Virus record (IMG/VR): IMGVR_UViG_3300029705_000018
DNA from: a virus
Taxonomy: Duplodnaviria > Heunggongvirae > Uroviricota > Caudoviricetes
Reading direction: 5' to 3' (one strand)
DNA length: 64,000 bases
The notes under the pieces were generated by a model. The model was not told the DNA's origin, did not search any database, and was given only the letters and a program-made list of their open reading frames with translations. The position numbers were made by a program, and so were the translations under genes. This document shows positions 1,109 through 33,075 of the stretch, piece by piece (the first letter of the stretch is position 1; each line of letters starts with the position of its first letter).

Positions 1109-1949
1109 ATATCAAGGCTCGCTTTTCTGATAAACGGATTTTAAGTCTGCATCATAAAATTAGTTGCTGTGTGAGCCTTTATTTCTTATGTATATATTAT
1201 ACAAAAAATTTTTTAGAAAATCAACTTTTCAAAGTAAAAAGGATAGAAAAAATCCACATTGAAATCTAACTTGAGCCTACTTTATATGCGCTGACTACAA
1301 CGAGTCGCCATATACTACCGACCTGCTTCTAATTTACCATCGGCTCTTATCATCATTCAATATGGATTTTCCACTTGTATTCACCTTTTGCTTTTCGTTG
1401 CCTGACCATGGAATTGGGGTCCATGTGCTATGTCAGTTCCTACAAGATTTCTAATATCATTATACATTAAGGCAGTTGGCAAATCTGCAATCAATTATCG
1501 CTACCCAATATCATCTATCCATTTCGCGATAGAGGCGCTCAGATTTATTTATTCGTCTGGGGAAGCGCAACTTAGCGGAGATTACTTTATCTTACAGACC
1601 GTAGACTATAAGTAAAGGTCTCACTTTCTTTTTAACACTAAACTGCTCTTTGACTTTTTAGCGAAAAAATCAAACTATGTGCTTGAGGTAAAAGTCAAAA
1701 GAAAACCTACCATATTAACGCATATGGGGCGTCGAACTAAATATCTGATACGTATCAGCACGGGTCGGGATATATCGTTTCACCACAGTCACCAGGCGGA
1801 GTGAAACCTTATTTAGTTCAAATACCACCGAGAACCTTCAGCCATAGGAGCAGTTCTCACGTTTTACCCTACGAGGACTTTGGGAATGAAAGGATGCCCC
1901 GCCTATATTCGCAGCGAATGGTATTCATTTTTTAGAGGTTTGAACCTCT

Positions 1950-2039
1950 TGGTGGGCCAGGAGAGAATTGAACTCACTCGACCGTGTTAACGGACCGGTT
2001 TTACAGACCGGGGCGCCTGCCTTAACGCTTTACTGACCC
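1950..2039 (-). tRNA. tRNA-Tyr (anticodon GTA), long variable arm
   Basis: Reverse complement GGGTCAG...CCGGT-CTGTAAA-ACCGG...long variable arm...CTGGCCCACCA, 90 nt. Confidence 0.65.
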
Positions 2040-2085
2040 ATATCTTTAATTATAAAGACACCTGATATTGATAAGTTTGAAAACC

Positions 2086-2457
2086 CTATCCATTTGCAGA
2101 TTTTTGAGTGCGGAGAGTAATTTGTTTATTACAGCCATATTCTTTCATATCTGCTACTGGAATGACATACATATTCATATTTCCATCTAAACAGAATAAA
2201 TAATCAACTGGATGATTAAGAACATTATCATACGTACCGCCCTTGGTTCCGCCAGTACTTCTCAAAGAAATAGTATTATCAGAACTTCCAGTTGCTTTAC
2301 ATTGGACTGTCTTAAATTCACCATCTTTTTCAATGACTAAATCATACCATTGAGTATCATTTAGAGGAACATTCACAGTGTATCCATTGGCTCCAAAATA
2401 GGCAATTGCCATTGCCATACCTGCGCGACCTTTGTCACGATTTGTTTCAAATAACAT
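2086..2457 (-). CDS. hypothetical protein
   Basis: ORF of 123 aa on the same strand as its neighbours. It lies at the 3' end of the long ORF-free leader transcribed from the conserved promoter at ~3745-3790. Confidence 0.45.
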   Translation of the reverse strand: MLFETNRDKGRAGMAMAIAYFGANGYTVNVPLNDTQWYDLVIEKDGEFKTVQCKATGSSDNTISLRSTGGTKGGTYDNVLNHPVDYLFCLDGNMNMYVIPVADMKEYGCNKQITLRTQKSANG

Positions 2458-2459
2458 AG

Positions 2460-3745
2460 TAAAATCTCCTTTTCTTTTAGCTTCTACTATATTTCAAAAC
2501 TAAATCATATAAATTATCTAACGCCGGCCACGGTGTCTGCCGAAATATAAATGCCTTGTTCAGTATATGTCTGACCTCAACTTGAACGACCTACCGGTGT
2601 AGACTTGTCCCGGGTAAAATCTACATCGCTCAGACACTTCCCGACGCATTGTGAAAACAGTCGCTGTGCAGGCACGAGCAACCTGGAGGCTCAACACGTC
2701 ACGCGAGGACTTTCGCTTTAGCCTTGTTCAATCTCCTTGGGCATGGAGGGTGGTGGAGCGAGAAAAATAATGAACTCGCTGATTGTCGCCTTTACGGGGG
2801 CTAGGCGACATTTCTTTCGCCCCTGGTGGGAAACCTTGGACTCAAACCAAGAAGTCTTTTCAGACGCCGGATTTACAGTAATCATAGAAACATATTGCGG
2901 ATAAGGTCTTTGCCAACACCTTTTTCAAATGAAAAGCCTTTCGGCTCCGGTGCGTTTATCAATTCCGCCAGTTTCCCAAATTTATAAACCTGATAAGTTT
3001 GCTGACCTTCGTCATACTCCCTATAACCTTCAACCATATTCAATCACCGGGGAGACAAGTCTGAGCCTTCGGGAGCGACCCTAAGCTTCTTGCCCCAGTA
3101 GTTCTGACACACCAGAGGCGGCCTTTCCTACCCTATCCCGCAGAGGACTGATTGCCTCTAACTTTCACTCGCCATTCAGAATTGTTTAAGTCTATTAAAC
3201 CATACTATCTAAACAGCCCAATCTTTCTTCTCGTCGTTGCGATAGAGCTACTCGTACCCTGACCTTACCTTATAGCCGGATTACTCCGACATCAACGCAG
3301 ACTTCCTTATTGGTGTACCTTGGTCTGGAACAGTCACCAGCTAATCCCTAACAAGGCTTATTCCCCACGGGGGCGTCTATTGCGGAAGCGATAAGACGGT
3401 ATTTTTGATTGCGGTTATCTTTGCACTCCTCTCCATCCAGGCCCTCCCTTTGGAGGCGGCTCTCTTATGTCACCACAAGAGAATCTACCTATTACCGGCT
3501 ATCGTCGGTAAGATTGCTTTTCGGACTCCTGGTACCCACAGGCAGGATGAGGATCTCGGCACGATGGTATTCGTTCTTCACCGAGTTGCAAACTTATCAA
3601 GGTTCATGACAGTCATTAGTCGAAATCGCACTCACCAGGGTTATTCACCGGAGGGTTTCTGTCAGGAGTGCTTCAAGGCTCACTTTTTTCTCATACAGTT
3701 GGAGCGAGTTGCAGTCGCAAATTTTATGAATAAGAATTGCTGTTT
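2460..3745 (-). ncRNA. candidate large structured ncRNA (ORF-free, GC-rich; could instead be a long leader for the gene at 2086..2457)
   Basis: About 1.25 kb with no credible ORF in any frame. It is markedly more GC-rich than the surrounding AT-rich phage DNA. On the minus strand it lies directly downstream of a copy of the conserved early promoter (rev-comp TTGACTTTTCAAAAAAAATTTGTTATAAT at ~3745-3790). It has many GNRA-type hairpins (e.g. GAGCCGAAAGGCTT, GGGGCGAAAGAAATGTCGCC...CCCC). An embedded tRNA-like 3' element ends CTTGG-TTTGAGT-CCAAG-GTTTCCC-A-CCA at ~2812-2970. Confidence 0.45.
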
Positions 3746-3790
3746 GAGCCTTATATTTATATTATAACAAATTTTTTTTGAAAAGTCAAA
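3745..3790 (-). promoter_or_regulatory. conserved early promoter element (one of >=17 copies)
   Basis: On the minus strand reads TTGACTTTTCAAAAAAAATTTGTTATAATATAAATATAAGG. It matches the family TTGATTTT(T/C)A(T/A)AAAAAATATGTTATAATAT(A/T)TATGTAAG(A/G)TAAAG. Confidence 0.6.
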
Positions 3791-31192: not shown

Positions 31193-31502
31193 TCTTTATT
31201 TGATTTTATAAAAAAATATTGTTATAATTATTATAGTATAAAAGAAAAGGTGGAAAAGGTTATATGATGCTTGTAGATGAAGGTTATCTTCATGACAATA
31301 CTATCGTGCGCATCGGGGAAGAGATGGGAATCTTTAGAAAACCCGATGAAAGCAAAGTAGAATATGTCATGAGGGTCATTCAAGAACTTCAATTCAAAAA
31401 GCCCTAAGTAGGGGTATTCAAAAAATGAATTGAAAAAATGAAATGAAAACCGAGGAACAAAATAAAAAATGAAATGAAAATCCGATTGAAAGGAAAAGTA
31501 AA

Positions 31503-31958
31503 ATGGTTTTTAGCTATAATAATTTAATGTCTGCCGCAAAGTCTGGTCAGAGACTTGGTAAGTGGAAGGATTTGCCGGTCTTTTCTTGTGATAGAATGGG
31601 ACTGGCGCAAAAAGGCAATGGTGCTTATTATGTCGTCTATGATGATGACAATGCTTTCGTGAAGAAGAGCGGTTCTATGTGGTTCAGATTTGGTTATCTG
31701 GATAAGGAAGGCTCTGTTCATGAGGACACTAAGCGAGAATATTTCCCCATCCGCACAGAGAAGGACAAGGAAGTCTTCTATTATAATGAGAAGAAAGCTA
31801 CAGTGGAGTTTGCGCCTGTACCGACCGTACATACTACTGCTTCTTCTGGAACTACGACTGCGGATGTGAAACTGGAGATTGACGTTGAGGGAACCTTGAA
31901 GAAGGCGAGGGAAATGACTATTGAAGATTTGCTCGCAGGATTCAACTACGGACTCTAA
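31503..31958 (+). CDS. hypothetical protein
   Basis: 151 aa. Confidence 0.5.
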   Translation: MVFSYNNLMSAAKSGQRLGKWKDLPVFSCDRMGLAQKGNGAYYVVYDDDNAFVKKSGSMWFRFGYLDKEGSVHEDTKREYFPIRTEKDKEVFYYNEKKATVEFAPVPTVHTTASSGTTTADVKLEIDVEGTLKKAREMTIEDLLAGFNYGL

Positions 31959-32049
31959 GTGGACTCGCTTCTGGAATAAAGTATTTCCGATCGTTGAGTG
32001 GTTAGAAGATTTGGGGGAGCTTATTGTGCTCTTGGATGATATATTTGAT

Positions 32050-32080
32050 TAAGGAGGACTTCGGTCCTCCTTTTTTTGTT
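32050..32080 (+). terminator. rho-independent terminator
   Basis: AGGAGGAC-TTCG-GTCCTCCT followed by TTTTTTT. Confidence 0.7.
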
Positions 32081-32099
32081 GCTTTTGGAAGAGAATTGT

Positions 32100-33075
32100 G
32101 AGATTGTTCTGGCCGATCGGCCCCTGGACTATCCGATCGCTTTTCCTCGTCACCGTTACCGTTGGGGCATAAAAAAATCCACCCTCATTTTCAGAGGGTG
32201 GGTTCTAAAATTATCTTAGCGTAGCTCTTCTCTTGGTAGTTGTAGCTTAGTCAGAAATCATCTTATGAGAATTTCTTCACAACGAGAATCTTACTTCATA
32301 ATTTGAGCCAAAAATTCCTTTAGAGCTTCATCATCGCTCTTGGCGTGAATGGTGGCGGAACGCTTCTTAGGATTTAGACCAACCAGCTTATCCTCGGGGA
32401 TAGCATCGATTGCGGTCTTCAGTTCCTTCATTGCGCCCATCAGGGCGAAAGTCTGATCCAGGGCCTCAACCAGAGTGTCCAGGTCATCGTCAGTGATTTC
32501 CATCTCATCCATGGCGGTGTTGCCAGTCAGATCAGCGTAATCACGGAACAGGTCGACCATCTTCAGACCCAGATCCTTTTTCTTTGCGGCCAGCTCCACC
32601 TTGGCGACACGCTCTGCCTCGGCCTTACGGGCGGCCTCCTGCTCAGCACAGAAGTCAGACATTGCGGCGTTCATGGCATCTGCCATGGCCTGACCAATTG
32701 CATTGATATCCTGACCATTGCGCAACTGGTCCAGGAAATAGTTCTTATCATAAACCATTGGTATATACCTCACATTTCTTATTTATTGTACTTATATTAT
32801 ATCAAAAAATTTTATAAAAATCAAATCCGATCGGCGCTTTCTGCGTTCTCCGAACGCAGATTGGATTTTTTATAAAAAAAATGTTATAATAAAAAAAAAG
32901 AACATTTTTACCGATCGGGACTTTCAATTCAATGTTTCGCCATATGAGAATTCCCGATCGGCCCTCCGGGGTGGGGTGCTAGATTTCGGGAGAACGGGGC
33001 ATATGCGGAAGTCGCTAGAAGTAGCAGAAAAATTCCATATGGGGTATACCGATCGGAAAATCGGGCCCTGACCTC
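32100..33075. repeat. cluster of six CCGATCG(G) palindromes in ORF-poor DNA
   Basis: Copies at ~32108, 32137, 32825, 32914, 32956 and 33050, often followed by GGCCC. A minus-strand TTGACA-N17-TATAAT promoter at ~33115-33150 reads into the 32880-33110 ORF-free stretch. Confidence 0.5.
32291..32773 (-). CDS. hypothetical helical protein
   Basis: 160 aa. Promoter copy at 32775-32830. Confidence 0.5.
   Translation of the reverse strand: MRYIPMVYDKNYFLDQLRNGQDINAIGQAMADAMNAAMSDFCAEQEAARKAEAERVAKVELAAKKKDLGLKMVDLFRDYADLTGNTAMDEMEITDDDLDTLVEALDQTFALMGAMKELKTAIDAIPEDKLVGLNPKKRSATIHAKSDDEALKEFLAQIMK

Follow-up and report, generated by a model that had tools for sequence, protein, structure and literature searches.

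Why would a large phage place almost the same fifty or so nucleotides ahead of one transcription unit after another, and keep constant not only the promoter but also the first bases that would be transcribed from it? The question is raised by a 64,000-nt stretch of DNA (the window) of the IMG/VR virus record IMGVR_UViG_3300029705_000018, an uncultured large gut or rumen phage, in which an A/T-rich element, here called the class-1 promoter, is reiterated. The reading that we favour, with a probability of roughly 0.7, is that each copy is a very strong promoter of the host sigma-A/sigma-70 type, joined to a purine-rich initial transcribed sequence (ITS) that would favour promoter escape. The interpretation of the copies as promoters is well supported by sequence and comparison, and we infer from the same evidence their use by the host sigma-A, their early timing and the role of the ITS in escape.

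A repeat search recovers a family of 50-58-nt direct repeats at every position named by an earlier note on this DNA, and all 16 minus-strand sites which that note listed lie within ~10 nt of where it had placed them. Its literal consensus, however, has no match even at three mismatches, because the spacer in it is one A too short. The degenerate 40-nt consensus TTGAYTTTNNWAAAAWWWTWTKWTATAATATWWAYRYAAG gives, at up to three mismatches, exactly 16 minus-strand matches in the window and none in 100 dinucleotide-preserving shuffles. A position weight matrix (PWM) built from these 16 copies scores them at 48-71 bits, compared with a maximum of ~6 bits in mononucleotide shuffles of the window. The same PWM gives 28 bits to a plus-strand copy at 31198-31247, which had been overlooked in the earlier count and which precedes the only plus-strand open reading frames (ORFs) of that block. 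There are thus 17 class-1 copies, 16 on the minus and one on the plus strand, each of them intergenic and co-oriented with the genes or RNAs downstream. The copies are given below from -35 to +14; on the minus strand the -35 hexamer starts at the higher coordinate, by which copies are named in the text unless their +1 is given.

1176-1224, minus strand: class-1 copy; a Y-RNA-like module follows, then tRNA-Thr at +82
3741-3789, minus strand: class-1 copy; Y-RNA-like stem module, then ROOL RNA (3609-2984)
4940-4988, minus strand: class-1 copy; 101-aa ORF from +28
5767-5815, minus strand: class-1 copy; Y-RNA-like/tRNA-Gly module (Gly at +32), then tRNA-Ile and two tRNA-Pro
10939-10987, minus strand: class-1 copy; small ORF from +31, then tRNA-Glu (+134) and the tRNA array
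12696-12744, minus strand: class-1 copy; 177-nt G+C-rich leader, then tRNA-Asn (+178)
12999-13047, minus strand: class-1 copy; 5' hairpin, then YrlA-like RNA (12931-12763)
13459-13507, minus strand: class-1 copy; 123-aa ORF from +40
13849-13897, minus strand: class-1 copy; 5' hairpin, small ORF, then tRNA-Trp at +258
20072-20120, minus strand: class-1 copy without TGn; 5' hairpin GTAAGG/CCTTAC, 135-aa ORF from +64
21733-21781, minus strand: class-1 copy adjoining a 13-bp terminator hairpin (21812-21784); 531-aa ORF from +30
24056-24104, minus strand: class-1 copy; ~213-nt structured leader, then 87-aa ORF
25284-25332, minus strand: class-1 copy adjoining a terminator hairpin; 383-aa ORF from +46
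26468-26516, minus strand: class-1 copy adjoining a terminator hairpin (26542-26518); 93-aa ORF from +37
29872-29920, minus strand: class-1 copy; 89-aa ORF from +131
32776-32824, minus strand: class-1 copy with the most divergent ITS of the set; 155-aa ORF from +32
31200-31248, plus strand: class-1 copy missed by the earlier note, ahead of the block's only plus-strand ORFs

The anatomy of these copies bears out the sigma-70-like reading that the note had proposed. The -35 hexamer is TTGATT in 14 copies and TTGACT in two, which agrees with TTGACA at 4-5 of 6 positions, and the -10 hexamer is a perfect TATAAT (6/6) in every copy, bringing the TTGATT/TATAAT pair to 10-11 of 12 consensus positions. 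The spacer between them is exactly 17 bp long and made of A and T only in all 16 minus-strand copies, and it measures 17 bp in the plus-strand copy too. The extended -10 motif TGn is found in 13/16 and is absent from the copies at 1224, 20120 and 21781 (+1 at 1189, 20085 and 21746). The discriminator is all A/T (ATWTAT or ATATAC), and the seventh nucleotide after the -10 is a purine in 16/16 copies and in 98-99% of related sites. This +1 purine is followed by GTAAGRTAAAGRA or a near variant as the ITS, and the whole module spans 66 bp, from about -52 to +14, as at 24056-24121 on the minus strand. At its upstream end, about half of the copies share the tract AAAAAATCTT. At 21781, 25332 and 26516 a G+C-rich terminator hairpin abuts instead, with its T-run merging into the -35, and a weaker hairpin is found at 32824; the remaining copies carry an A-tract in place of the terminator.

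The transcribed part of the module, +1 to +14 (RKAARRTRAARAAA), is purine-rich and nearly C-free, and it does not differ between copies that precede mRNAs, tRNAs, ROOL RNA or Y-RNA-like RNAs. Related sites were retrieved by a pattern scan, covering -35 to -1, of IMG/VR and of one genome per GTDB species; all statistics on related sites are drawn from the matches listed in those two scans, and the pattern leaves the positions downstream of -1 free. Among 149 unique related sites, a purine stands at +1 in 100%, position +2 is taken by T or G, A fills +3 and +4 in 95-96%, T fills +7 in 69%, and purines account for 83-93% at +8 to +15. C amounts to at most 1% through +15, against a background of 18%, and the signal is lost by about +20. 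When 289 related sites were split by the presence of a downstream start codon, the +1 to +14 profile of the 157 sites with a start codon preceded by a Shine-Dalgarno (SD) sequence by +45 was indistinguishable from that of the 111 sites with none within +80. The two groups differ only at +15 to +21, which is G-rich, as a real SD, where a gene follows. Conservation of the ITS falls off only past +14, and the conserved transcribed segment described in the note is real and kept across phages, but ends at about +14 rather than +25.

Neither translation nor a structured leader accounts for this segment. In the protein-coding copies a real SD lies at +12 to +35, and the claim that a strong SD is always present in the leader does not hold for five or six copies, which are followed by RNA genes (for tRNAs, ROOL or Y-RNA-like RNAs) or by long leaders that are not translated. 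That the ITS itself serves as the SD of the gene is ruled out, since the +1 to +14 profile is identical where no gene follows. The suggestion of a shared, structured leader fares no better, as the conserved segment has no common fold: in minimum-free-energy folds of +1 to +50, +1 to +14 is wholly unpaired in 7/16 window copies, and in the relatives at least 6 nt at the 5' end are paired in 26.6% of sites compared with 20.6 +/- 2.1% expected, which is a slight enrichment. Four window copies do have 5'-terminal hairpins (+1 at 13012, 13862, 20085 and 24069). The hairpin at 13012 (copy 13047) reaches -13.8 kcal/mol versus -5.5 +/- 2.2 for shuffled tails, and the GTAAGG/CCTTAC hairpin at 20085 (copy 20120) is kept in three orthologs with a U-G change. 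A search of the leaders for Rfam families gave no match. Since the ITS is the same whatever follows and has no shared fold, +1 to +14 is tied to the promoter and not to translation or a structured leader. The regulatory role proposed in the note is thereby narrowed to a 14-nt element that would act at the level of the DNA or of the initiating complex.

The module is found in at least 113 IMG/VR stretches, on related contigs such as IMGVR_UViG_3300032167_000002, and in at least 120 stretches of metagenome-assembled genomes (MAGs). All genome matches listed are contigs from MAGs whose labels contradict one another (Methanobrevibacter, Treponema, Alistipes, Clostridia, Bacilli); among these GTDB loci (L114-L233), some are 130-176 kb long, and further bins are labelled Endomicrobiaceae, Nanosyncoccus and others. 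With taxonomy so inconsistent, the contigs probably belong to phage genomes that were placed in the wrong MAGs, and they allow no statement on the host beyond Bacillota-like signals. True relatives, with 65-90% nucleotide identity to the window (L055/L081, L125, L083, L084, L106, L205 and L212), retain the module ahead of orthologous genes. In 18 ortholog pairs anchored solely on sequence beyond +40, identity is 67% upstream (-65 to -36), 92% in the core (-35 to -7), 90% from -6 to +14 (6 of these 20 positions fall inside the retrieval pattern), 70% from +15 to +40 and 78% in the downstream gene or RNA.

A less biased, relaxed definition (TTGA[CT]WWW-N12-TGN-TAYAAT) applied to the related contigs still separates two coherent modules, one with TTGATTTT and one with TTGACAA at the -35. 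The spacer has 2-3% G+C at TTGATTTT sites compared with 36% at TTGACAA sites. The discriminator of the former has the consensus ATATAT and 2-4% G+C, while that of the latter has no clear consensus and 22% G+C, and C makes up 1.9% of the ITS in the former and 11.8% in the latter. The contrast holds for the 192 TTGATTTT sites that lie outside the retrieval pattern. Among cultured phages, Enterococcus phage EF1, which has been placed in a phAss-1-related group (PMC10607447), has a looser form, TGnTATAAT-ATTTAT-ATAAGnTAAAG, in a dozen intergenic copies whose spacers vary more; copies of it lie at positions 25838, 32991, 39082, 42027, 42281 and 48441 on the plus strand of the EF1 record and at 25537, 8172 and 4015 on its minus strand. 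Furthermore, with the module as a blastn query, similar intergenic sequences turned up in cultured Firmicutes phages, and one of them, in Kayvirus Sb-1, was annotated as a promoter by its depositors. Searches of named phages with window positions 13-33 kb (megablast) and with the 531-aa ORF (tblastn) gave no match. A prohead-protease-like protein provides a distant link to the human-gut phage phAss-1 and to large Bacillus, Lactococcus and Enterococcus siphoviruses.

The second module is represented in the window as well, contrary to the view of a single element, by an equally reiterated promoter family that occupies 33-46.5 kb. Weaker hybrids, which combine a TTGACA-type -35 with the class-1 layout, are found at 17457, 44295, 41239 and 48976. 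The site near 48975 that had been called a variant copy is real (48976-49025, 16.8 bits), but it is such a hybrid with a TTGACAAA -35 and not a plain copy.

33096-46486, minus strand: second promoter family, 27 minus-strand copies; TTGACAAA, 17-bp G+C-containing spacer, TGn, TAYAAT
17456-17504, minus strand: hybrid promoter; TTGACA, A/T spacer, TGnTATAAT, 12/12 consensus positions; 328-aa ORF from +25
48975-49023, minus strand: hybrid promoter (the former variant); TTGACAAAG -35, A/T spacer; first of the minus-strand block
49107-49155, plus strand: divergent twin hybrid promoter, heading the plus-strand TAG-recoded block

The members of the second family have the form A-tract-CCYC-TTGACAAA-N9-RTGN-TAYAAT and precede almost every small gene of the block, which includes genes for an HD-domain protein, a nucleoside deoxyribosyltransferase and a 5'-nucleotidase-like protein. 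In several copies the -35 is surrounded by a dyad of variable sequence, for example AAAAGGC-TTGACAA-AAGCCTTTT at 36664 and GGAATACCTC-TTGACAAAT-GAGGTATTCC at 42603. Plus-strand TTGACAAA promoters are located inside the minus-strand gene block at 36052-36125 and 43529-43600, with G+C-rich hairpins behind both (cccgggc...gcccggg and gcgccgg...cggcgcgc), and are candidates for driving short antisense RNAs. The hybrid promoters at 49.0-49.1 kb sit at a divergent junction.

Beyond this junction, the plus-strand structural block (49-64 kb) makes sense only when TAG is read as a sense codon: ORFs of at least 200 aa then number 12 (4469 aa) instead of 9 (3050 aa) and contain 19 in-frame TAGs. These TAGs fall in six ORFs of the region 49076-62669 (plus strand), for instance six in 61938-62669, and the gaps between ORFs close. 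The large minus-strand genes behind the promoters contain no in-frame TAG. TAG is likewise recoded in phAss-1 (PMC10607447). No tRNA with a CTA anticodon is present among the 31 tRNAs called in the window. The label early/accessory given to the class-1 units gains indirect support from this opposition between TAG-free genes and a structural block that needs TAG read-through.

How would such a promoter work? Its geometry and composition agree with a housekeeping-sigma promoter in which each known element is optimised. The module fronts 17 separate standard-code units, comprising small accessory ORFs, an array of 31 tRNAs, ROOL and Y-RNA-like RNAs. As these units are written in the standard code, a host RNA polymerase without any modification could express them ahead of the structural genes, in which TAG is recoded. 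The 14 conserved bases from +1 onward would act in the DNA or the initiating complex: with near-consensus contacts, promoter escape may become the limiting step, and a purine-rich non-template strand would favour productive escape, as in the T5 N25 and T7 A1 promoters. A purine-rich ITS is known to support escape, while a pyrimidine-rich ITS leads to backtracking and abortive release (PMC12464699); in addition, purine content correlates with productive yield, and GG or GA near +6 favours escape (PMC5961368). As a purine-rich ITS aids escape at near-consensus promoters, +1 to +14 is read here as the escape-tuning part of the module.

Several observations sit less easily with this reading. The -35 is TTGATT rather than TTGACA, although a TTGACAAA family coexists in the genome, and the spacer sequence is conserved far past the known need of sigma-A; together these may point to a further factor or to a regulatory class of its own. 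Bases in the ITS are position-specific, with K at +2 and T at +7, which the escape model does not explain. The sigma-A consensus used for comparison is a general one and may not be that of the host. The retrieval pattern fixes much of -35 to -1, where cross-phage conservation is in part imposed, while the ITS is free. Finally, the start sites and the timing are themselves read from the sequence.

The position-specific bases are what a promoter-proximal pause would account for. Here, +2 to +7 (TAAGAT or TAAGGT) would mimic a -10 element to which sigma-A re-binds, pausing RNA polymerase at about +16 to +20, and this is where a phage factor, either a Q-like antiterminator or some different modifier, would be loaded, perhaps in contact with the A/T spacer, to allow read-through of hairpins or terminators inside the tRNA/non-coding RNA array. 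We give this a low probability, although of the roles that the note suggested for the leader (processing, antitermination, factor binding), the hexamer would suit antitermination. The lambda PR' promoter does work by sigma-dependent pausing (PMC4005639), and terminator-like hairpins lie between the units here. The -10-like TAnnnT is found at +2 to +7 in 10/16 window copies and nAnnnT in 12/16; across phages, nAnnnT occurs in this register in 66% of 394 TTGATTTT-class sites versus 12% of 128 TTGACAA-class sites, other registers giving at most 12%, and A at +3 (96%) and T at +7 (70-75%) stand out amid purines. A spacer conserved beyond normal need would fit as well. However, Q-type systems rely on a single late promoter instead of 17 early promoters, the 64-kb window yielded neither a Q-like gene nor one for an antiterminator, and the RNA-array copies with +1 at 1189, 3754 and 5780, which would need antitermination most, lack T at +7. 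Moreover, slower escape can be a plain consequence of TA or TG steps near +5/+6 (PMC5961368). Alternatively, the purine tract might work at the RNA level, by stabilising the 5' end or as a standby site for ribosomes, like the SP82 stabiliser or STAB-SD, with a 30S subunit on the SD-like AAAGGA near the 5' end blocking 5'-to-3' decay by RNase J1. Polypurine 5' stabilisers are known in Bacillus and a Bacillus phage, as far as Hue 1995 is relayed in PMC7509114 and PMC3997798. The segment +1 to +14 is 83% purine with AAGG/AAAGGA words, in 240 of the 289 sites the stretch from +1 to +22 holds a word of at least 5 nt with complementarity to the 3' end of 16S rRNA, and the minority of copies with a 5'-terminal hairpin adds another known stabiliser. 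Yet this explanation is unlikely as well: the tract is also found ahead of tRNAs, ROOL and Y-RNA-like RNAs, which lose their 5' leaders in processing, the SD-like words are about as frequent at gene-less sites as in composition-matched shuffles (70% versus ~60%, not significant), and K at +2 and T at +7 find no explanation.

The conserved spacer and the existence of two families could point to a phage-encoded factor (a sigma, repressor or activator) that reads or gates TTGATTTT and the A/T spacer, the families then being two temporal classes. Clade-wide, the -35 flank indeed predicts the G+C of the spacer (2% versus 36%), the discriminator and the C content of the ITS, and the two families occupy separate genome blocks. 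We nevertheless regard this as rather improbable, given that both families fit the sigma-A consensus in -35, spacing, TGn and -10, and that Pfam and PHROG scans of 50 proteins from the 64 kb of the window revealed no sigma factor, antiterminator, transcription regulator or other DNA-binding regulator. A bolder combination has low odds: spacer and TAARRT (+2 to +7) may form a pausing platform that loads a phage factor at ~17 early units, a multi-copy Firmicute-phage counterpart of lambda Q/PR', with a clade-wide switch between class-1 and TTGACAAA promoters. Conservation could also stem from concerted evolution, in which recombination like that of PeSL (promoter-early stem-loop) repeats would keep entire units alike, with function demanding no more than the -35 and -10; PeSLs recombine in this way in T4-like phages (PMC4122927). 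The copies near 10940 and 13460 (10987 and 13507) are identical over ~64 nt, upstream flank included. In L205, the ortholog of promoter 20120 is the exact insertion point of an extra unit of promoter and 100-aa ORF, so that a promoter copy lies on either side; the ORF of this unit shares 39% identity with one that the window carries 3 kb away, and the neighbouring 135-aa gene is 62% identical to that of the window. L084 is colinear with the window at 19.6-23.9 and 26.8-27.8 kb, with unrelated genes replacing 24101-26790, and the left of the two breakpoints lies at promoter 24104. Within the reading that we favour, too, the repeats may double as recombination points for cassette swapping, a side role that two cases can suggest but not establish. 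As an explanation of the conserved start, concerted evolution is nonetheless quite improbable, because the ITS pattern persists in the contigs and EF1 despite strongly diverged spacers and genes, conservation ends sharply at +14 without decay with distance, and the terminator half of a PeSL is present in only 3-4 of 16 copies. Least of all would the repeats be A/T-rich elements for replication, packaging or binding of a nucleoid-like protein. They are A/T-rich and their promoter role rests on sequence, but their sigma-A geometry is perfect, 17/17 point in the direction of the genes downstream, none lies outside an intergenic region, behind each comes either an RNA gene or a start codon with its SD, and the analogous Kayvirus sites are annotated or described as promoters, all of which makes this very improbable indeed.

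Strong housekeeping-sigma promoters of this kind have parallels in well-known phages. Reiterated, highly conserved early promoters are typical of T4, T5 and SPO1, and the early promoters of the SPO1 host-takeover module, reportedly treated by Stewart and colleagues in 1998, are taken as a like case. The early promoters of the Herelleviridae have a TTGACW -35, a 17-bp spacer, TRTGN and TATANT (PMC10383478). In the early/middle promoters of Kayvirus (K/Sb-1/515A1), a group of large lytic Firmicutes phages, the layout of -35, 17-bp spacer and extended -10 is the same and is likewise present in many copies per genome, promoters of this type also drive a tRNA cluster and GOLLD/ROOL-like long RNAs, and the annotated Sb-1 promoter aligns to the module. 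In contrast to Kayvirus and SPO1, the -35 is TTGATT here, A/T makes up 97-98% of a spacer whose sequence is itself conserved, conservation of the discriminator and of +1 to +14 equals that of the core, a second coherent family coexists, and the genome belongs to an uncultured TAG-recoding lineage near phAss-1 and EF1 instead of the Herelleviridae. The promoters of coliphage T5 (PN25, P25, P26) and T7 A1 appear analogous in being near-consensus, A/T-rich and very strong promoters of host RNA polymerase with a purine-rich ITS that modulates escape (PMC12464699, PMC5961368). T5 differs in the phylum of its host, and its ITSs are not a fixed 14-nt motif across 17 promoters. To our knowledge, a TGn requirement has not been described for T5 promoters.

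Other likenesses concern parts of the module. Like the T4 PeSLs, it is a conserved composite repeat between variable small genes, with indels or replacements at the repeat between relatives of T4 (PMC2839356, PMC4122927), to which the one clean insertion and the one replacement breakpoint described above may correspond; the scarcity of abutting terminator hairpins and the host and sigma context set it apart. With the SP82 polypurine stabiliser and STAB-SD it shares a polypurine tract that resembles an SD and opens the early RNA of a Firmicute phage, but the tract here also precedes tRNAs and non-coding RNAs, and its SD-likeness is no more than composition predicts. The -10-like hexamer in the first transcribed bases, together with the conserved sequence between -35 and -10, would resemble lambda PR' (PMC4005639), from which the module differs in having 17 early promoters and in the lack of a Q-like gene in the 64-kb window.

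As to the units themselves, eleven are protein ORFs with their own SD and start codons at +28 to +131. All 31 tRNA genes lie on the minus strand of the window. A full-length ROOL RNA (RF03087, 323 bits, model positions 1-574) is encoded at 2984-3609 (minus strand) inside the tRNA array, ~145 nt downstream of copy 3789, with a Y-RNA-like stem module in between. This RNA module is recurrent and has the form 5'-AAGRCNC-nnA-CAGCAA-[A/T-rich insert]-GNGYCTT-GWnTAT, followed by a tRNA or ROOL; the insert often holds a T-arm or an entire tRNA. CAGCAA boxes are found on the minus strand at 1169, 3742, 4232, 4453, 5130, 5768, 6507 and 9283, with a further module at 12763-12931, and a CAGCAA box after the promoter is also present in many related contigs. 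The closing stem covaries (GGCTC/GAGCC, GACAC/GTGTC, GACAG/CTGTC, GGCAG/CTGCC, GGCAC/GTGCC, GACTC/GAGTC), and two copies match YrlA (Y-RNA-like) below threshold (43.7 and 31.7 bits versus a gathering score of 69). Long, G+C-rich and apparently structured untranslated leaders at 23856-24069 and 12533-12709 (both minus strand), behind copies 24104 and 12744, have no match in Rfam; the latter is 92% conserved in L125. Between tRNA genes, a DUF3800-XI RNA motif (RF02975, 47.6 bits; gathering score 37.8) lies at 10489-10524 (minus strand). Two tRNA-like sequences at 11868-11937 and 11953-12021 (minus strand; Rfam 40.8 and 38.6 bits) are missed by ARAGORN, and their anticodon arms look irregular.

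Accessory minus-strand genes of the promoter-driven blocks include those for a papain-like cysteine peptidase (PF00112, 225-803), a family-2 glycosyltransferase embedded in the tRNA array (7781-8662) and a FolD homologue just past the second-family block (47841-48620); EF1 also has a FolD homologue. An HNH/homing-endonuclease gene (14297-15019, minus strand; PHROG 374, 559 and 9084) lies in a patch of low G+C (35.6%) and is apparently absent from the otherwise colinear relatives L205 and L212.

Reiterated, conserved early promoters are a familiar strategy of large phages; what is unusual here is the conservation of the first 14 transcribed bases. The 17 class-1 and ~27 class-2 units, the latter being those of the second family, provide a sequence-defined transcription map for a TAG-recoding gut/rumen Bacillota phage lineage, which assigns promoters to the tRNA array, the ROOL RNA and several Y-RNA-like RNAs. 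The motif is a sensitive metagenome marker of this phage group, including contigs mis-binned in archaeal, spirochaete and Bacteroidales MAGs, and the 66-bp module might serve as a short and strong promoter in Clostridia and Bacilli. A 14-nt, C-free start that is conserved like the -10 and -35 amounts to a natural experiment on how the ITS tunes very strong Firmicutes promoters, and the cultured relative EF1 makes the module testable.

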